Shown here in pieces: positions 1,143 through 9,965 of a stretch of DNA of 32,811 nucleotides (the first letter of the stretch is position 1; the number at the start of each line of letters is the position of its first letter). The stretch is from Chloroflexota bacterium. Its GTDB lineage: Bacteria > Chloroflexota > Limnocylindria > Limnocylindrales > CSP1-4. Below the pieces are notes generated by a model. The model did not search any database, was not told the origin of the DNA, and saw nothing but the letters and a program-made list of their open reading frames with translations. Made by a program: the position numbers and the translations under genes. The stretch spans positions 12,155-44,965 of the forward strand of contig VBFZ01000124.1 of NCBI GenBank assembly GCA_005880805.1, given 5' to 3'.

Positions 1143-1619
1143 TCAGGAGGCCGCCTCCAGGAAGCGGACGTACGAATCGTCGCGAGCCTGGATGCGGATC
1201 TCGCGTGGATCGTCGCCGGTGCCCTCGAGCGTCACGTCCAATCGTGCCGCGGGCAGCGCCCCCGCCAGCCGATCCGCCCATTCGATGACGGTCACGCCCT
1301 CGGCCTGGCGCTCATCGAGGAGTCCGCCCGCCAGTGCCTCGGAAGCGTCGGCCAGGCGGTAGAGGTCGAGGTGGAACAGAGGCAGGCGTCCAGGGTATTC
1401 GGCCATCAGCACGAAGCTCGGCGAGTTGACGGTCTGCTGCACGCCGAGGCCCTTCGCAAACCCCTTCGCGAGCTGGGTCTTCCCGGCTCCGAGCTCGCCA
1501 TACAGCGCGATGACGTCGCCAGCCCGAGCCTTCGACGCGAGCGCGGACCCGAGCCTGCGCGTCGCGTCGGCGTCGCGGCTGGGAACGGCTCGCTCGAGGC
1601 GATCGAGGGTGGTCGACAT
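1143..1619 (-). CDS. tsaE: tRNA threonylcarbamoyladenosine biosynthesis ATPase TsaE
   Basis: Walker A GELGAGKT, VNSPSF, HLDLYRL, VIEWAD; start placed at ATG 1619, 6 nt below a TACCCT -10 box. Confidence 0.95.
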   Translation of the reverse strand: MSTTLDRLERAVPSRDADATRRLGSALASKARAGDVIALYGELGAGKTQLAKGFAKGLGVQQTVNSPSFVLMAEYPGRLPLFHLDLYRLADASEALAGGLLDERQAEGVTVIEWADRLAGALPAARLDVTLEGTGDDPREIRIQARDDSYVRFLEAAS

Positions 1620-1625
1620 GCGACG

Positions 1626-1631
1626 AGGGTA
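1626..1631 (-). promoter_or_regulatory. Putative -10 box (TACCCT) of a leaderless promoter for tsaE-tsaB-rimI
   Basis: TANNNT exactly 6 nt upstream of the ATG; no SD visible. Confidence 0.6.
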
Positions 1632-1673
1632 CCGGAAGCGCCTCCGGACGCCGCACACAGAGCGTCGGCGAGC

Positions 1674-1733
1674 CGGCCTCGGTCAGACGAAGACGAAGCC
1701 CTGGAGTCGGCCCGCGGCTTCGGTCAGACGAAG
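1674..1733. repeat. 19-nt direct repeat (18/19) duplicating the stop-codon region of the upstream hypothetical gene, with a 7-bp stem in the same region
   Basis: cggcctcggtcagacgaag (1674-1692) vs cggcttcggtcagacgaag (1715-1733); stem cgaagcc 1694-1700 / ggcttcg 1716-1722. Confidence 0.6.
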
Positions 1734-2716
1734 CGCTCGAGGTCGGCCAGCGGCACCGGCGTCGGCGGACCGTCGTCGAAGCGGACGAAGCCCGCCTCCA
1801 GGTGGACGGCCGCCCCGAAGCGTCGTGGCCCGGCGGGACCGGCCCAGCGACCCTCGCGACCCGCCATCGGCCCACTCGCCACCCTGACCCAGTCGGCGGG
1901 TGGCGTGGGTACCGATTCCACGCGACGGAAGAGGAGCTGTGGCGGATCGCCGACGATCGCCACCTCGTTGCCCTCCAGCGACGCGAGCAGCTCCATCACC
2001 GGCGAGGCAATCCGGCGGCGGAGCACGCCATCGAGGACGAGCACGGCGAACGGCGCCAGCTGGTGCACACTCGCGCGCTGCCGGCGCTCCGACGCCTCGA
2101 AGTCGCGCAAGTCCTTGCCGGACAGGGCGGCGACGACCACACCCCGAACGCCCATCGCGCGGGCCCGGGTCAGCGTCTCGGCCTCGACGCGCGACCCGAC
2201 CACCAGGATCGAGCCCGATCGACCGACGTCGAGGGCAGCCGGGCGGAGCTCGCCGTCGGCCCCGGTCGCGATTTCCAGCCGGCCGCGGCTCGGCCCGCCG
2301 ATCGCGAGGACGCCGGCGAGGGAGTCCGCGGCGGCCTCGACCACCAGCCCGGTCGCCGTGTCGGCCGAGCGGACGATGCCGCTGATCGGCGATTCGAGGG
2401 GCTCTCGCTGCCCGCCGCTCAGCAGCCACGTTCGCTGGCCCGCGCTCAGGAGCGGGCTGTCTCCGGCCTCTTCGCGGCGTCGCCGGCCAGTTTCCTCGAC
2501 GAGCGGGTCGCGGAGCCGGTCGGCCAGCAGGATTCCGGCCGAGATCGTCTGCCCGGGGGCGACCCGGACCGTGTCGGCCATCGAGAGCGGAAACCGGAGC
2601 GTCGGCGATCGCTGAACCAGCGGTCGAGCTGTCACCAGCCCGAGCCCGTTGGCCATTGCCACGCCGCCGCCGGTCCCGTTGTTGCCAGACGCGGGGTGAC
2701 CGATTGGTCCCGTCAT
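1724..2716 (-). CDS. Conserved hypothetical protein (330 aa): barrel-sandwich-hybrid-like N-terminus, central alpha/beta domain, C-terminal KOW/SH3-like motif; probable partner of the GlmL-like protein
   Basis: ATG 2716 overlaps the upstream stop (ATGA); VRVAPGQTISAG..LA and SPISGIV resemble biotinyl/RnfC-N half motifs; WVRVASGPMAGREG is KOW-like; ends VPLADLERF. Confidence 0.75.
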   Translation of the reverse strand: MTGPIGHPASGNNGTGGGVAMANGLGLVTARPLVQRSPTLRFPLSMADTVRVAPGQTISAGILLADRLRDPLVEETGRRRREEAGDSPLLSAGQRTWLLSGGQREPLESPISGIVRSADTATGLVVEAAADSLAGVLAIGGPSRGRLEIATGADGELRPAALDVGRSGSILVVGSRVEAETLTRARAMGVRGVVVAALSGKDLRDFEASERRQRASVHQLAPFAVLVLDGVLRRRIASPVMELLASLEGNEVAIVGDPPQLLFRRVESVPTPPADWVRVASGPMAGREGRWAGPAGPRRFGAAVHLEAGFVRFDDGPPTPVPLADLERFV

Positions 2717-4344
2717 GCTTCGAGGTCCGGCCACAGCGAGCGCTGCCATTCGGCGAGCTGGTCGCGCCGCCGATCCGAGCCCTCCGGGAGCCGGAGCGGA
2801 ACGTCGCGCAGGTCCACGATGAGACCGGCCAGTCCTCCGCTGACCTCGATCCCGAACTTGCGCCCGCGGGTGCCGACCGTGACAGGCTCCCGGAACTCGA
2901 GTTCGGCACTCGCCAGCTGACCGGGCGGAACGTCCACGATCTCGAGTCCTCCAGGGACCAGCTCCCGTTCCTGGGATCGCCCGTCCGACCGAACCGCGAT
3001 GCGCCCGATGGGCCGACCGCCCTTGAGGCCCTGCGCGACGACGACGCTCCCCACCGGAAGGAGCACTTCGTCCAGCAGGTCGTCGATGAGCTGGCGCCGT
3101 TCCCCGTCATCGTCGAGCGTCCCGAGTGGACCGAGAAGCCGGGCGTGATCGATGGCGAGCTGGGCCGCGCCGGATCGGCGGCGGATGTCGGCCAGCGCCA
3201 GGGCGATTGCCGGCGCAGGGCCCGAGGACCAGACTCCGCCGGTCGCCACGACCAGATCGGCGGGAGGCAGCGCGGAGATCGCCGGCGTGGCGTCGATCAG
3301 GCGCGAAACCGCGACTCGTGCCGCCGCCAGCCGCAGGAGCGCGCCGTCGCCCTGGGCATCCGCCCATGGGCGAAACCGCAGTTCGCGGAGCCTGTCGCGA
3401 AGCCGCGTGCGATCGAGCGGCAGCGTCGACCAGGCGAGGACCGCGTCCACGGTCGCCTCGTCCGGTTCCGGCGGGAACAGCGCCGCGGCCGCGCTCTCGG
3501 AAGCGAGCGATCCAGCTCCGGAGGGCTCCCCGGCAGAGGGCCATGCTGCCGCACGGAGGCCGCCGTCGAGGCCGATCTCGAGCGCTTCGACTCGCCGGTC
3601 GACTACTGCAGCCAGCGACTTCGTTGCCTGCGCAATCCCCTGTCGCCCGTCGTCCGGACGCGCGCGCAGTCCGCCCAGGAAGATCGTCAGCGGGGCTCCG
3701 GGAGGGTCCCCCGCGTTCGGCGCGGGCGCAAACAGGCGCTCGGGGGCCGGCCTGGCAGGAGCGGCCTCTGCATTCGACTCGGTGGTTCCGCTTTGTCCGC
3801 CGGACGCCGCGACTGCGCCGGACAGCACGAGTGGGAGGCCCGGCCGACGCTCAGCGATGGCGTCGGCGACGAGGTTGAGCTCCTCGAGCCGGCGGCGCTC
3901 GTCGCCGAGCGGCGGGTCGGCACATCCGATGAGGGCGGCGTCGACGCCTGGTGCGAGCGCGGCATCCACGAGCTTCAGGAGGTCGCCATGCTCGAGGCTC
4001 GCGGGGCGAACGCGCCATCCAGCCCGATCCGCCGCCGCGGCGAGCGAGTCGCGCCGCGCGTTCGTTGGGGCAAGCACGGCCAGCAGGCCTCGTGGCGCAG
4101 TCCGGGCGACCAGCCTGCCGATCGCGCTCGCTCTCGCGGGGATGGCAAGCTCTTCGACGATCTGCGGCGATGCCTCGCGAAGCCGGGCCAGGAGGAGGTC
4201 GAGCATCGGCTCGGGATCGCTGGTCGCCGGCATGGCCAGGCTGCCGAGGAGCCGCCATTGGCCCTGGAGGCGGCCGATCAGGGCTGCGGCTGTGGTGGCG
4301 GCGCCCAAGTCCAGCGTCAGGAATACGCGCGGGTCGCTCGTCAC
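2713..4344 (-). CDS. Glutamate mutase L (GlmL/MutL)-like actin-fold protein, divergent
   Basis: Phosphate-1-like LTLDLGAATT; degenerate phosphate-2 EIGLDGG; VVATGGVWS; extra C-terminal beta-rich domain ending GGLAGLIVDLRDVPLRLP...W; family recognised from memory. Confidence 0.7.
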   Translation of the reverse strand: MTSDPRVFLTLDLGAATTAAALIGRLQGQWRLLGSLAMPATSDPEPMLDLLLARLREASPQIVEELAIPARASAIGRLVARTAPRGLLAVLAPTNARRDSLAAAADRAGWRVRPASLEHGDLLKLVDAALAPGVDAALIGCADPPLGDERRRLEELNLVADAIAERRPGLPLVLSGAVAASGGQSGTTESNAEAAPARPAPERLFAPAPNAGDPPGAPLTIFLGGLRARPDDGRQGIAQATKSLAAVVDRRVEALEIGLDGGLRAAAWPSAGEPSGAGSLASESAAAALFPPEPDEATVDAVLAWSTLPLDRTRLRDRLRELRFRPWADAQGDGALLRLAAARVAVSRLIDATPAISALPPADLVVATGGVWSSGPAPAIALALADIRRRSGAAQLAIDHARLLGPLGTLDDDGERRQLIDDLLDEVLLPVGSVVVAQGLKGGRPIGRIAVRSDGRSQERELVPGGLEIVDVPPGQLASAELEFREPVTVGTRGRKFGIEVSGGLAGLIVDLRDVPLRLPEGSDRRRDQLAEWQRSLWPDLEA

Positions 4345-4350
4345 CCCGTA

Positions 4351-4356
4351 ATGCTA
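4351..4356 (-). promoter_or_regulatory. Putative -10 box (TAGCAT) of a leaderless promoter for the GlmL-like gene pair
   Basis: TANNNT 6 nt upstream of GTG 4344, within a 32-nt spacer. Confidence 0.6.
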
Positions 4357-4376
4357 CCCGCCAGCGGCGGGAGCTC

Positions 4377-4667
4377 TCAGGCGTCCCAGGCGATCTCTTC
4401 TTCGATCTCCTCGAGACGGGCGATCAGTTGCTCGATGCCGTCGTCGTCGGCCAGGATCTCGCTCGCCGACGCGAACTCGCCGCCGAACAGGCCGCGCAGC
4501 ACCGGATCGAAGAACAGCATCGCGTTCGGCCCGAGCGGCCGGTATGGCCGGCTGGCCTGCAGGAAGTGGACCGCGGGAGCGGTCAGTCCGCGCAGCTGGA
4601 TCTCGCGGGCCACCTGCTCCACCAGGTCGTCGCGCTGCTCCTGGACCTGCTCCGGCGGGAGAGTCAT
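4377..4667 (-). CDS. Small acidic helical hypothetical protein (96 aa)
   Basis: ATGA overlap with the macro gene stop; amphipathic helical pattern, GC3-rich codons. Confidence 0.8.
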   Translation of the reverse strand: MTLPPEQVQEQRDDLVEQVAREIQLRGLTAPAVHFLQASRPYRPLGPNAMLFFDPVLRGLFGGEFASASEILADDDGIEQLIARLEEIEEEIAWDA

Positions 4668-5227
4668 GCGCCCGACCCGCTCGATTGCCCGGCGATCGCG
4701 CCAGGCGGTTGCTCGGAGGCCGTGCTCGGTTCGGCCAGTGCCCGCTCGAACACGTGGTAGGCCGTCGCCCCGCGGAGGGCGAAGATCACGGCGTTGAGGC
4801 TCGGGGTCGCCGGAAGCTCCTCGCGCACGGTGCTGACCGTGATGCGCGCCCCCTCTTCGAGGGGGAACCCGCCTACGCCGGTGCCGAGCGCCGGGAAGGC
4901 GATGCTCGTCACGTTGTTCTCTCTCGCGCGCGCCATGGCGCTGCGCACGGCCTTCTCGATGACGGGCCCGCTCGTCCGCCGATCACGATCGAGCGAGACG
5001 GCATGGATCACGAGTCGGGCGGCCAGGGTGCCGGCGTTGGTGACGACCGCTTCACCGAGATCGATGGGACCCTGTCGAACGGCCGCGAACTCGATCGAGT
5101 CACCGCCCGCGCGCTTGATCGCCCCCCCGACGCCGGTGGCCATCCAGAGCGAGGGGTTGGCGGGGTTCACGATCGCGTCCACCTCGAGGTCGCAGATGTC
5201 TCCGTTCCAGAGTTCGATAGGCGCCAC
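4664..5227 (-). CDS. Macrodomain (ADP-ribose-binding / O-acetyl-ADP-ribose deacetylase-like) protein
   Basis: GDI, DAIVNPAN, GVGGAI, VIHAV, SIAFPALGTGVGGFP; GTG start with SD GGAGGAG. Confidence 0.92.
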   Translation of the reverse strand: MAPIELWNGDICDLEVDAIVNPANPSLWMATGVGGAIKRAGGDSIEFAAVRQGPIDLGEAVVTNAGTLAARLVIHAVSLDRDRRTSGPVIEKAVRSAMARARENNVTSIAFPALGTGVGGFPLEEGARITVSTVREELPATPSLNAVIFALRGATAYHVFERALAEPSTASEQPPGAIAGQSSGSGA

Positions 5228-6426
5228 GCGTAGGTCTCCTCCGTGAGCGTCCTCAGACCCACGGGTACGGCCGAGCGATAGTACACCCGGGCTACCCGCC
5301 GAGCCATCGCGGTCACCACCTCGTACGAGATGGTGGTGCGCCTCTGCGCCAAGTCCAGCGCCGTGATCCGATGCCCGTCCTGCTCGCCGAACAGCACGAA
5401 TTCGTCGTCCACGCCGACCGGTGGGCCGGGGACGTCGGTCACCTCGGCCATGACGGCGTCCATCGCGACCGTTCCGACCAGCGGGACGCGGACGCCGCGC
5501 ACGAGGGCCTCGGCGCGGTTCGAAAGCTCTCGGGGCCAGCCATCCCCGTAGCCGATCGGCAGCGTCGCAATGCGGCTGGGGCGGGAGGTCTCGAAGCTCG
5601 GCCCATAGCTCACCCCATGGCCGGCGGGCAGATCCACGACGCGGACCGCACGAGCGTGGAGTGACATGGCCGGCTCGAGGCGCTGCGCGGCCGCGATAAG
5701 GCTCGGATCCGCGGTCAGCCCGTCGGGGATGAGGCCGTAGGTCGAGAGGCCGAGTCGCACGCTGTCGAACGGCGGGACGCTCGCGGCCAGCAGGCCGCCG
5801 CTGGCCGCGATGTGGCGCAACGCGACGTCAGGATCCGAGGTACCCAGGGTTGCCAGGGCGCGCTCGAAGCGGGCGTGCTGCGCCGACGTCCGGCTCCGGT
5901 CACCGGCGGCCGAGAGGTGCGACCAGATGCCTGCCAGCCTCACGTCGGGTGCGTCGGCGATCGCGGCAAGCGCGTTTGGCAGATCGCCCTCGTCGAAGCC
6001 TCCCCGGCCCAGGCCCGTCTCGACCTCCACCTGAATCGTGAGAGGGTGACTCTGACTCGATCCCCCACCTCGACCGCGTCGGATGGCGGCGAGCGTCCGG
6101 GCGAGCAGGTCCATGTCGCCCGCGGTCAGTGCGACGTCGAGACCTGCGGCGTCCGGAGCGAGATCGGGCGGAACCGGGTAGAGGACGAGGATCGGGAGGC
6201 GGATTCCGCCTCGACGAAGCTCTACCGCCTCGTCCAGGGTCGCGACGGAGAAACCGTCCACGCCGCAGGTCTCGAGCCAGCTCGCCGTCCCGAGGGCGCC
6301 ATGCCCGTACGCGTCGGCCTTGACGACCGGCTCGAGGCGGACGCCGTGGGGCAGGCCGGATCGGATGGCGGCAGTGTTCGCCGAGAGGCGATCGAGGTCG
6401 ATCGCGAGCCACGCGGTGCGCGGCAA
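5167..6426 (-). CDS. alr: Alanine racemase (start uncertain: TTG 6426 or CTG 6504)
   Basis: AWLAIDLDRL, PLP-lysine motif VVKADAYGHG, catalytic Tyr in GVSYG, GYGDG, TISYEVVT. Confidence 0.93.
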   Translation of the reverse strand: MPRTAWLAIDLDRLSANTAAIRSGLPHGVRLEPVVKADAYGHGALGTASWLETCGVDGFSVATLDEAVELRRGGIRLPILVLYPVPPDLAPDAAGLDVALTAGDMDLLARTLAAIRRGRGGGSSQSHPLTIQVEVETGLGRGGFDEGDLPNALAAIADAPDVRLAGIWSHLSAAGDRSRTSAQHARFERALATLGTSDPDVALRHIAASGGLLAASVPPFDSVRLGLSTYGLIPDGLTADPSLIAAAQRLEPAMSLHARAVRVVDLPAGHGVSYGPSFETSRPSRIATLPIGYGDGWPRELSNRAEALVRGVRVPLVGTVAMDAVMAEVTDVPGPPVGVDDEFVLFGEQDGHRITALDLAQRRTTISYEVVTAMARRVARVYYRSAVPVGLRTLTEETYAWRLSNSGTETSATSRWTRS

Positions 6427-8193: not shown

Positions 8194-9965
8194 CTACTCC
8201 ACCGTCACGGACTTGGCGAGGTTGCGCGGCTGGTCGACGTCCGTGCCGCGCGCCACCGCGGTGTGGTAGGCGAACAGCTGGAGCGGGATGACGGCCAGGA
8301 TCGGGGATAGCGCCTCGTGGGTATCCGGTACCCAGCAGACGTCGTCCGCGAAGCGCTCGATCTGCTCGTCGCCCTCGGTCGCCACCGCGATCACCTTGGC
8401 GTCGCGCGCGCGGCCCTCCATGACGTTGCTGATGAGCTTCTCGTACACCGACGAGCGTGTGGCGACAGCGACGAGCGGGCACTCGGCGTCCAGCAGCGAA
8501 ATCGGGCCGTGCTTGAGCTCGCCGGCAGCGTACCCCTCGGCATGGAGGTAGCTGATCTCCTTGAGCTTCAGCGCGCCCTCGAGCGCGGCCGGGTAGCCGT
8601 ATCCGCGCCCGACGAACATGAAGCCGCGCGAGTTGACGTACCGCCGCGCGAGCTCCGAAGCGCCGGCCGCCGAATCCAGCGCGCGCTGGGCGGCTTCGGG
8701 GAGGCGGCGCAGCGCGCCCGCCAGTTCACGCTCCTCGTCCTCGGGGAGCGTCCCCCGAATCCTGCCGATGCCGGCGGCGAGCACGATGAGCGTCGTCACC
8801 TGCGCCACGAACGTCTTGGAGGCGGCCACCGCGATCTCCGGCCCGGCCTGCAGGAACAGGACCGCGTCGGCTTCGCGCGTGATCGCGGAGCCCACGGTGT
8901 TGGTCACCGCGATGACGGGGCAGCCGCGCTCGCGCGCAAGGCGCGTCGGGGCGATCGTGTCGGCGGTTTCGCCCGACTGGGTGACGGCGATGACCAGCGT
9001 GTCCGGGCCGAGCGGCGGGGGGCTGTAGCGGAACTCGGAGCCGATGGTCGCCCGTGCCGGCAGCCCGGTCCAGTCCTGGAGCGCCGCCGCTCCGACGAGC
9101 GAGGCGTAGTAGGCGGTGGCTCCTCGACGCGGATCCGGTCGTCGCGTCCGACCCGGCCGGCGATCGATTGGCGGAGTGCCTCCGGCTGCTCGTGGATCTC
9201 CTTGAGCATGAAGTGCTCGTAGCCGCCCTTCTCGGCCATCTCGGCCGACCAGGAGATCGTCGTGACCGATCGATCGACAGGCCGCCCGGCGATGTCGGTG
9301 ATCGTCACCCCGCTCGGGCGCAGGTCGGCGACGTCGCCCTCCTCGAGGAAGATGACCTGGTCGGTGTGGGCGAGGATCGCCGCGACGTCGCTCGCCAGGA
9401 AGCCTTCCCCGTCGGCCACGCCGACCACCAGCGGCACGTTCATCCGCGCCCCGACGAGGCGGTCGGCCTCGCCACGATGCATGACCGCGATCGCGTAGGC
9501 ACCTTCCAGTCGGGCGAGCGCGGCTCGCGTCGCGTCGGCGATGTCGCCACCGTAGGCGTCCTCGATCAGGTGGGCGATGGCCTCGGTGTCAGTCTCGGAT
9601 GCCAGCTTGTGGCCTTCCTTCTCGAGCTCATCGCGCAGCTCCCGGAAGTTCTCGATGATCCCGTTGTGGATCACCGTGATGTCGCCCGTGCAGTCCTGGT
9701 GGGGATGCGCGTTGAGATCGTTCGGCCGCCCGTGCGTCGCCCAGCGGGTGTGAGCCAGCCCGATCGCCGCATGGGGCGTGCGGTCCTCGATGGCGGTCTG
9801 AAGCACCGCCAGCTTGCCGGCCCGCTTCTCCACGAACAGGTCGCCCTGCTCGTCGACGAGCGCGATGCCGGCCGAGTCGTAACCGCGGTATTCGAGCCGG
9901 CGAAGGCCTTCGATCAGGATCGGACCGGCTTCGCGCGGTCCGGTGTAGCCAACGATGCCGCACAT
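8194..9965 (-). pseudogene. glmS: Glutamine--fructose-6-phosphate transaminase GlmS, interrupted by a frameshifting deletion at ~9118-9119 (real lesion or assembly artefact)
   Basis: MCGIVG, EYRGYDSAG, HTRWATHG, HNGIIEN, MLKEIHEQP in one frame; TAYYA..SEFRY..QSGETADT..ALEGALKLKE..PRNLAKSVTVE in another frame; the conserved ..ACG segment is missing. Confidence 0.9.

Follow-up and report, generated by a model that had tools for sequence, protein, structure and literature searches.

A conserved three-gene module of Chloroflexota centered on a predicted remote relative of the MutL/GlmL family

Proteins of the MutL/GlmL family are filed as accessory factors of B12-dependent mutases, and GlmL is thought to repair or load glutamate mutase; what, then, might a MutL-like gene be doing where no mutase is encoded nearby? 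The question is raised by a 32,811-nucleotide stretch of DNA from a soil bacterium, a Limnocylindria-class member of the Chloroflexota (contig VBFZ01000124.1 of assembly GCA_005880805.1; here called the window), in which the genes for an actin-fold protein (A) and its partner (B) follow that for a small protein, p96 (Table 1). A preliminary description, made from the sequence alone, had singled out A and B as an orphan GlmL/MutL-like pair with a role unrelated to glutamate mutase, and Pfam scans of 18 and of 24 open reading frames (ORFs) bear out its statement that no mutase or cobalamin gene lies in these 33 kb. The trio of p96, A, and B is an undescribed variant of the known MutL/GlmL family, and the pair tracks neither glutamate mutase nor methylmalonyl-CoA-type (MCM-type) mutases. 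The association of the three genes, their partners in other classes, and the uses to which such a module could be put are considered below.

The placement of A within the family is indirect. At the level of curated models, A gives no match at E ≤ 1 to Pfam MutL (PF13941; gathering cut-off, 27 bits), none to Pfam Hydantoinase_A, and none to the NCBIfam models TIGR01319 (glmL_fam), NF040745 (accessory_GlmL), or NF040744, whose curated cut-offs are 204, 475, and 600 bits, respectively. PF13941 is matched at E ≤ 1e-3 in 1 of 15 genomes of the window's own family, f1. A profile of A draws in 777 representative clusters at E ≤ 1e-3, and of 24 distant members of these that were scanned, two reach or approach Pfam MutL, at 56.6 bits (P0387) and 23 bits (P0373). 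The connection is provided by what we term long forms, proteins of 563 to 686 amino acids (aa) encoded next to a B homologue in other Chloroflexota, which score 61 to 239 bits on PF13941 over model positions 1 to 450 and carry a C-terminal extension of about 120 aa beyond that model. When the Limnocylindria A profile (A1) is compared by hhalign with these PF13941 proteins, the probability is 99.4% (E 3.9e-21) over 521 columns, the C-terminal domain included; against five canonical MutL proteins it is only 1.3%, and the tie of A to the MutL family is for this reason transitive. As A matches no model and yet aligns with long forms that score on PF13941, it appears from profile comparison to be a remote, unannotated branch of the MutL/GlmL family and not a model-level member, which sustains the earlier view of A as an orphan distant relative.

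The long-form protein at locus L120 reaches 76.6 bits on TIGR01319, 92 on NF040745, and 60.7 on NF040744, far under the cut-offs. Canonical short MutL proteins of the phylum are 443 to 483 aa long, score 490 to 568 bits on PF13941, and are encoded directly beside GlmS-GlmE (L136 and L137) or OraS-OraE (L138 and L139). The glutamate-mutase-linked protein of L136 passes TIGR01319 and NF040745 (486.7 and 620.3 bits, respectively), and the ornithine-linked protein of L138 passes TIGR01319 and falls just under the NF040744 cut-off. Both forms can occur in one genome, at separate loci in G076 and about 7 kb apart on one contig in G184, and the canonical proteins form an intact clade in a quick tree (SH-aLRT 100). 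A complete ornithine-fermentation cluster was also seen beside canonical MutL (L138:48-8785 and L139:2811-7818), with genes for 2,4-diaminopentanoate dehydrogenase, OrtA, a pyridoxal phosphate enzyme, and OraS/OraE and with racemase-like genes; the Chloroflexota genomes that carry it have the long-form pair at another locus as well.

Structural models of A and B were built with AlphaFold2 on alignments of 30 sequences. The model of A (pLDDT 84.1, pTM 0.83) has two RNase-H-like subdomains flanking a nucleotide cleft and gives 198 Foldseek matches at E ≤ 1e-3, led by N-methylhydantoinase, acetophenone carboxylase, PilM, glycerol kinase, Hsp70, and FtsA; VIA structure comparison also places it among proteins of the actin/Hsp70-type (ASKHA) fold. 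To this fold the model of A adds a beta domain at the C terminus, as had been proposed from the sequence, and a flavodoxin-like domain is inserted in it. The beta domain is followed by a conserved DLRDVPLRLP tail and then by a helix, and this C-terminal region is the part of A best conserved between the window's class and distant long forms, in which its beta region falls outside the 450-position PF13941 model. Of the nucleotide motifs, A keeps D12 and G14 of the phosphate-1 D-x-G and the GG of the adenosine motif, within a progressive erosion of the phosphate motifs that runs from canonical proteins through long forms to the window's class. A sequence-profile search of the PDB gave best E-values of 0.24 for A and 0.11 for B.

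The model of B (pLDDT 82.0, pTM 0.77) resolves into a barrel-sandwich hybrid domain, a swivelling beta/beta/alpha domain, and a KOW/SH3-like barrel; this predicted make-up agrees with the one first described, the former alpha/beta core now being read as the swivelling domain. The top Foldseek match is Thermotoga maritima NusG, and the swivelling domain comes closest to PTS enzyme I and rifampin phosphotransferase. B belongs to no Pfam or NCBIfam family, and its three-domain combination is absent from both collections. Pfam KOW (PF00467) scores 13.7 bits (E 0.06) on residues 275 to 289, under its cut-off of 22.3, with 22.6 and 21.2 bits in two homologues, and a distant B-like paralogue has a weak NQRA_N match (21.8 bits). 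In a set of 15 diverse B proteins, nine glycines, two valines, one proline, and the start methionine are invariant. No lysine, histidine, or cysteine is conserved in this set: the barrel-sandwich domain has no invariant or nearly invariant lysine of the biotinyl/lipoyl type, and as for a phospho-accepting histidine, H218 is invariant only in the class alignment and not conserved across the phylum. Because such residues are missing, B is read as a probable adaptor and not as an enzyme or carrier. Ten longer fused forms of B were set aside; they fall into nine single-member clusters and one of three, several run into TsaE/TsaB domains, and they are read as gene-call or assembly read-throughs.

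The linkage of these genes was followed from the window's class to the whole phylum. Within the class, a motif scan with one genome per species gave 347 stretches encoding relatives, and the class-level counts refer to the best 80 of these 347 loci, nearly all titled as Limnocylindria-type or Chloroflexota metagenome-assembled genomes; three are titled otherwise and have the same gene order. Among loci long enough to show the neighboring gene (with room), B comes after A in 72 of 73; in the remaining locus the match to A is truncated, and B sits where it would be expected. All 72 loci with room have p96 ahead of A, tsaE comes after B in 69 of 71, and 60 of 71 have the macro gene. p96 has no Pfam or NCBIfam family. 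It is the sole match among 30,010 ORFs of its own genome (E 6.7e-12, positions 7 to 84 of 88) to a profile hidden Markov model (HMM) of eight s80 proteins, whose gene opens an eight-gene operon in other classes, and on this basis it is a homologue of s80 and a third conserved member of the unit. The preliminary description, which took the unit to be A plus B, was thus right about the linkage of the two and underrated p96.

Phylum-wide tallies all refer to one set of 301 Chloroflexota genomes; those of B, PF13941, and MCM-type mutases take in five genomes flagged as unpublished (G038, G272, G227, G145, and G173), on none of which singly does any conclusion depend. A wide B profile (A3) finds B in 169 of the 301 genomes and in 31 of the 32 sampled from the window's class. 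Among the 111 genomes in which a noncanonical MutL and a B match are both listed, 79 have the two no more than 4 kb apart on a single contig, a count that leaves out G038 and G227. The 32 unlinked exceptions comprise 28 genomes of families f13, f30, f52, and f63, which keep both genes at separate loci (in f13, each of the two in 18 of 18 genomes), three contig-end fragments, and one weak match. In metagenome loci with room, B follows A in 65 of 65. The expectation that the pair would be found adjacent in other genomes is therefore borne out within the Chloroflexota. Where B is unlinked from MutL in f30 and f52 (L134:9143-11958 and L135:7280-10241), it is a longer paralogue or orthologue of 383 to 424 aa and adjoins a hybrid response-regulator/histidine-kinase gene. 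Beyond the phylum, the ESM Atlas offers provisional leads: an 876-aa cluster from Cloacimonadota that carries PF13941, as well as candidate relatives of B among clusters from Bacillota, Planctomycetota, and Fidelibacterota. The anti-phage models of PADLOC match none of A, B, p96, and seven proteins of the L120 operon.

A natural fusion adds to the picture obtained from gene order. In two species of a sister family within the same order, with genomes of 1.1 to 1.2 Mb (92 to 93% complete), a single ORF of 556 or 558 aa occupies the place between alr and tsaE. The two products share 41% identity and align with A over positions 227 to 511 (95.2%, E 2.5e-8) and with B over positions 116 to 330 (98.7%, E 2e-16), and they have neither the flavodoxin insert of A nor the barrel-sandwich domain of B. 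Given this fusion, the sequences indicate that A and B most likely form a stable physical complex, and the joint loss of the two domains suggests that these work together. At the loci in question (L141:6527-8194 and L142:6924-8597), nnrD, the macro gene, and p96 have disappeared, and the shortened fusion is what the reduced genomes keep.

In other classes the trio is part of a larger unit. In 80 metagenome loci (L165 to L244) the fixed order is s80, DUF6754, p207, the zinc-ribbon gene "big", p220, A, B, and p181; 23 of the 80 show the full set of eight, and none shows a different order. The operon is also present at L120:2930-10940. To the trio it adds four membrane proteins and an LPxTG surface protein. 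Transmembrane segments are predicted at both ends of DUF6754, and about six of them in p207 and some four to six in p220. Most members of "big" have an N-terminal zinc ribbon, and the protein includes a long region rich in acidic residues and proline as well as two transmembrane segments around a domain of about 200 aa; its disordered cytoplasmic region carries up to 31 D/E/S/N-W-L/V/I/F motifs. p181 ends in LP[NGQ]TG, a hydrophobic stretch, and RRLR in six of six proteins, a sortase-type sorting signal. Parts of the operon recur in families f5, f24, f28, f33, f34, f50, f59, and f68, and a zinc-ribbon protein is also encoded directly upstream of A in f6, f18, f27, and f45.

To our knowledge, the only role proposed for the MutL/GlmL family is that of a repair chaperone. 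This role, together with a domain set resembling that of DdrA/DdrB and the membrane and surface neighbors in other classes, leads us to favor, tentatively, a reading in which A-B is a nucleotide-switched chaperone or assembly module acting on a client that is probably associated with the envelope. In this reading p96, A, and B would make up one conserved protein module, with A, which would be a long form that has diverged far within the MutL/GlmL branch of ASKHA proteins, as the core of the complex, B as a non-enzymatic adaptor, and p96 as a small helical accessory and third subunit. A-B would then be the cytoplasmic nucleotide-switched engine of a Chloroflexota-wide system that in most other classes could be wired to membrane and cell-surface proteins, and Limnocylindria-type genomes would retain the soluble trio only, between alr and tsaE. 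The physical binding, the nucleotide dependence, the envelope link, and the client are what we infer here, going beyond what the data show, namely the modelled folds, the homology, the conservation and adjacency of the genes, the natural fusion, and the independence from the mutases surveyed.

A more far-reaching version is possible, if doubtful: s80/p96-A-B might be the soluble engine of a previously unrecognized, Chloroflexota-wide envelope machine in which A, as a repurposed MutL/GlmL-type actin-fold protein with B clamped onto it, would drive assembly or export of surface components, and to which the full set would add DUF6754, a six-transmembrane protein, the zinc-ribbon membrane protein, the polytopic p220, and the surface protein with its sortase signal. 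Were this so, the fused form that 1.1-Mb genomes keep would point to a core activity that is essential and independent of the membrane parts. The same operon also invites the comparison with FtsA and PilM, in that A might polymerize or dock as a membrane-tethered actin-like scaffold and bind short peptides of its membrane partners, the candidates being p96/s80 or the D-W-L motifs that recur in the zinc-ribbon protein. The membrane proteins of the operon and the up to 31 motifs of "big" would fit such a scaffold. We consider it unlikely, as homology points to the non-polymerizing MutL/hydantoinase branch and not to FtsA/PilM, the root-mean-square deviation (rmsd) between A and FtsA is 9.7 over 240 residues, and no membrane partners were found in the window's own genome.

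Several observations weigh against the preferred reading of A-B as a nucleotide-switched module with an envelope-associated client. With regard to nucleotide switching, the phosphate-1 T-K is lost in the window's class, the phosphate-2 DxGGxTT reads E/D-I-G-x-D-G-G-L-R there, and the canonical EGDLG motif is lost from A; with its nucleotide motifs so eroded, A may bind but not hydrolyze ATP, or do neither. With regard to the envelope, HMM searches found no DUF6754, p207, or p181 in the window's own genome, which is 85.5% complete, and of the other partners there is a weak partial p220-like match (C135, E 3.4e-4) and a "big" candidate by its zinc ribbon only, so that the envelope link may not hold in this genome. 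The quick tree, moreover, leaves the place of the canonical clade among the long forms, and hence long-form monophyly, unsettled. Finally, B12 enzymes are at hand: the window's genome has two MCM-type genes and two B12-binding domains, all five class relatives tested, both reduced genomes included, have an MCM-type mutase and a B12-binding domain, and the f20 genomes discussed below have B12-binding domains of other kinds. An MCM-type mutase is thus encoded in each of the six Limnocylindria-class genomes tested, and within this class A-B may serve it in trans.

Taken as a general account, such a trans-acting reactivase, which would repair or load an adenosylcobalamin enzyme encoded elsewhere, for instance an MCM-type mutase, draws further support from the membership of A in the MutL/GlmL superfamily, and it is nonetheless quite unlikely in view of how mutases and the pair are distributed. 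The survey behind this judgement covered GlmE and MCM-type mutases. No GlmE was found in the window's own genome or in the 32 genomes sampled from its class, and across the phylum it occurs in 6 of 301; where present, it adjoins canonical MutL. MCM-type mutases occur in 232 of 301 genomes and dissociate from the pair in both directions. Of the 17 genomes of family f20, 15 have B, next to A wherever the locus was checked, and none has an MCM-type mutase; in f7, f16, f17, and f22, MCM-type mutases are present in 38 of 40 genomes and B in 0 of 40. No locus examined has a mutase next to A or B, membrane proteins are what accompany the pair in its operon, and MCM enzymes are known to be served by G-protein chaperones (compare PMC10356863). 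Aminomutase families turned up beside canonical MutL only, although no genome-wide survey of them was made. The pair, therefore, does not follow the genes of glutamate mutase or MCM-type mutases, and the proposal of a role unrelated to glutamate mutase is supported; on the reading favored here, neither glutamate mutase nor ornithine aminomutase has A-B as its accessory factor.

The structural matches raise a further alternative, a metabolic enzyme. A-B could be an ATP-dependent enzyme like hydantoinase/oxoprolinase or the carboxylases, or a small-molecule kinase, for which the swivelling domain of B would be a mobile carrier as in phosphoenolpyruvate (PEP)-utilizing enzymes. The best Foldseek E-values of A, to N-methylhydantoinase, acetophenone carboxylase, acetone carboxylase chains, and sugar kinases, speak for it, as does the likeness of the B swivel to PTS enzyme I and rifampin phosphotransferase. 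We regard it as very unlikely given the absence of a His, Cys, or Lys conserved across the B family, the eroded catalytic motifs of A, the lack of a HyuB-like partner, and the lack of metabolic genes co-conserved across the phylum. Least likely of all is a translation or tRNA-modification factor tied to tsaE, tsaB, and rimI, with the KOW-like barrel of B contacting the ribosome or RNA: tsaE adjacency, seen also after the fused form, and the weak KOW signal with the NusG-like match of the barrel-sandwich and KOW domains speak for it, but the adjacency carries little weight because the whole glmM...rimI region is syntenic in the class, the pair is next to tsaE in 0 of 40 loci examined outside the class, and the KOW score of the window's B is under the cut-off. 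The translation link once drawn from the tsaEB neighbors is accordingly unsupported, that neighborhood being class-specific and the partners in other classes being membrane proteins.

The window itself has a G+C content of 69.6%, and its ORFs, taken as those passing a codon-position G+C filter, all lie on the minus strand with short gaps, except for a 111-aa ORF within secY. In coding-strand order it begins with the S10-spc-alpha ribosomal cluster with secY, adk, and map, then rpoA, rplQ, truA, rplM, and rpsI; genes for a TPR protein, cdaA, ybbR, glmM, glmS, acpS, nnrD, alr, and a macro-domain protein follow, and p96, A, B, tsaE, tsaB, and rimI come last. That A and B are two real genes overlapping by ATGA can be read directly from the sequence, the TGA of A and the ATG of B sharing these four bases. 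The start of B is not settled, because a second in-frame ATG at 2749 would give a protein of 341 aa; both starts overlap A.

The signals earlier ascribed to the pair did not stand up. A sigma-70 scan finds no promoter-like site in 1400-5400, and the supposed -10 box, TAGCAT 6 nucleotides above the GTG, agrees with the consensus at 4 of 6 positions and has no -35 element. The stem after B, taken for a terminator, folds no better than shuffled sequences (z -0.33; equalled by 69 of 200 shuffles) and has no T run; no minus-strand terminator was found in 1400-5400, the sole terminator-like site (4898-4910) being on the plus strand. With genes on one strand and short gaps throughout the window, the notion of a self-contained unit is unsupported. 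Contigs from RNA libraries of one metatranscriptome study fall on tsaE, a piece of A (3543-3693), the p96/A junction (4283-4433), and p96/macro, and none from that study falls on B or most of A; as such contigs do not prove transcription, no conclusion on transcription is drawn.

Three further features of the DNA may be recorded. The 32-nucleotide spacer between p96 and A holds a perfect 6-bp G+C hairpin at 4357-4371 (CCCGCC AGC GGCGGG on the plus strand) with no T run. An exact 14-nucleotide direct repeat, TCGGTCAGACGAAG, occurs at 1679-1692 and 1720-1733, 41 nucleotides apart, where none is expected by chance; one copy lies over the stop codon of B and the other in the B-tsaE spacer, and the repeat looks like a small duplication of the 3' end of B. 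The glmS gene (8194-9965, minus strand) is split over two frames that align with different parts of GlmS, residues 1 to 339 at 8949-9965 and residues 242 to 607 at 8197-9285, which places a frameshift between 8949 and 9285. This is either an assembly error or a broken gene, and relatives have a single intact glmS of 607 to 609 aa.

Table 1. Features of the p96-A-B locus in window coordinates
Feature	Position	Strand	Description	Basis
p96	4377..4667	-	96 aa, member of the s80 family	HMM match; position upstream of A
Gene A	2713..4344	-	GTG start, 543 aa, predicted long-form MutL/GlmL-like ASKHA protein	AlphaFold2 model, Foldseek, hhalign
Gene B	1724..2716	-	330 aa, three-domain partner without family	AlphaFold2 model, wide profile
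ATGA stop/start overlap of A and B	2713..2716	-		Read directly from sequence
Flavodoxin/CheY/B12-binding-like Rossmann domain (predicted)	3652..4095	-	A residues 84-231, inserted in ASKHA subdomain I	
Extra C-terminal beta domain (predicted)	2812..3057	-	A residues ~430-511	Model strands
Barrel-sandwich hybrid domain (predicted)	2330..2605	-	B residues 38-129	
Swivelling beta/beta/alpha domain (predicted)	1916..2329	-	B residues 130-267	
KOW/SH3-like C-terminal barrel (predicted)	1730..1891	-	B residues 276-329	Pfam KOW, 13.7 bits; Foldseek

The occurrence of the family across the phylum changes how it may be defined. PF13941 has matches in 167 of the 301 genomes, as against 6 with glutamate mutase, and where a B match is listed the long form either adjoins B or both are kept unlinked. 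PF13941 being far commoner than GlmE and the long form being kept with B, a larger, older, or at least parallel role of the family outside mutases would follow, and a family hitherto filed under B12-mutase accessory factors is thereby redefined. The A-B module looks like a housekeeping function, since A is present as a single copy in its own genome, B is found in nearly all genomes of the class, and the fused form is kept in the reduced genomes. The PF13941 cut-off is reached in 0 of 14 control genomes, which fits the lack of study. A literature search, supplements not covered, found no paper that mentions DUF6754, PF20539, or PF13941, and the accessible parts of the literature on GlmL, glutamate mutase, MutL, and ASKHA reactivases, including PMC5597319 and PMC4682846, contain nothing on an orphan MutL or on B. 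New to Pfam and NCBIfam are the families of B, p96/s80, p207, p220, and "big", while DUF6754 gains a context. The system is testable, since the sample includes several complete single-contig genomes that have the operon in full.

When A is placed beside known systems, the closest is GlmL/MutL itself (PF13941; NF040745, NF040744, and TIGR01319), with which it shares the ASKHA fold with an inserted Rossmann-like domain and, via the long forms, homology. Canonical members are 443 to 483 aa long, score 490 to 620 bits, and lie beside GlmS-GlmE or OraS-OraE, whereas A has 543 aa, an extra C-terminal beta domain, no model match, and eroded phosphate motifs, and has B and p96, not a mutase, as its companions. 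Pfam notes a likeness of MutL to the hydantoinase A branch, and the nucleotide-binding subunits of hydantoinase A and of acetone and acetophenone carboxylases give A its best Foldseek E-values (3.7e-7 to 3e-5); here the TM scores are 0.22 to 0.27, and A has no HyuB-type partner and no Pfam Hydantoinase_A match. With FtsA/PilM it shares the overall ASKHA topology, a domain inserted in subdomain I, and, elsewhere, membrane operon partners, but the inserted domain differs, the rmsd is 9.7, and no sequence relation was detected.

For B, the individual domains have counterparts in T. maritima NusG (barrel-sandwich hybrid and KOW), RnfC_N/NqrA_N, and the swivel domains of PEP-utilizing enzymes and RraA, although B differs from these in having no NGN domain, no flavin or FeS modules, and no conserved biotinyl/lipoyl Lys or phospho-His. 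It is the two proteins together that recall a known system. Diol dehydratase reactivase (DdrAB/PduGH) combines an ATPase core, a swivelling domain, and a flavodoxin-like subunit and is encoded with its dehydratase. In the structure of the diol/glycerol dehydratase reactivase DdrA-DdrB (PDB 2d0o), one chain, 2d0o_A, is matched by A at the ATPase core and by B at the swivel domain, and A and B would jointly carry the DdrA/DdrB domain set of ATPase core, swivel domain, and flavodoxin-like element.

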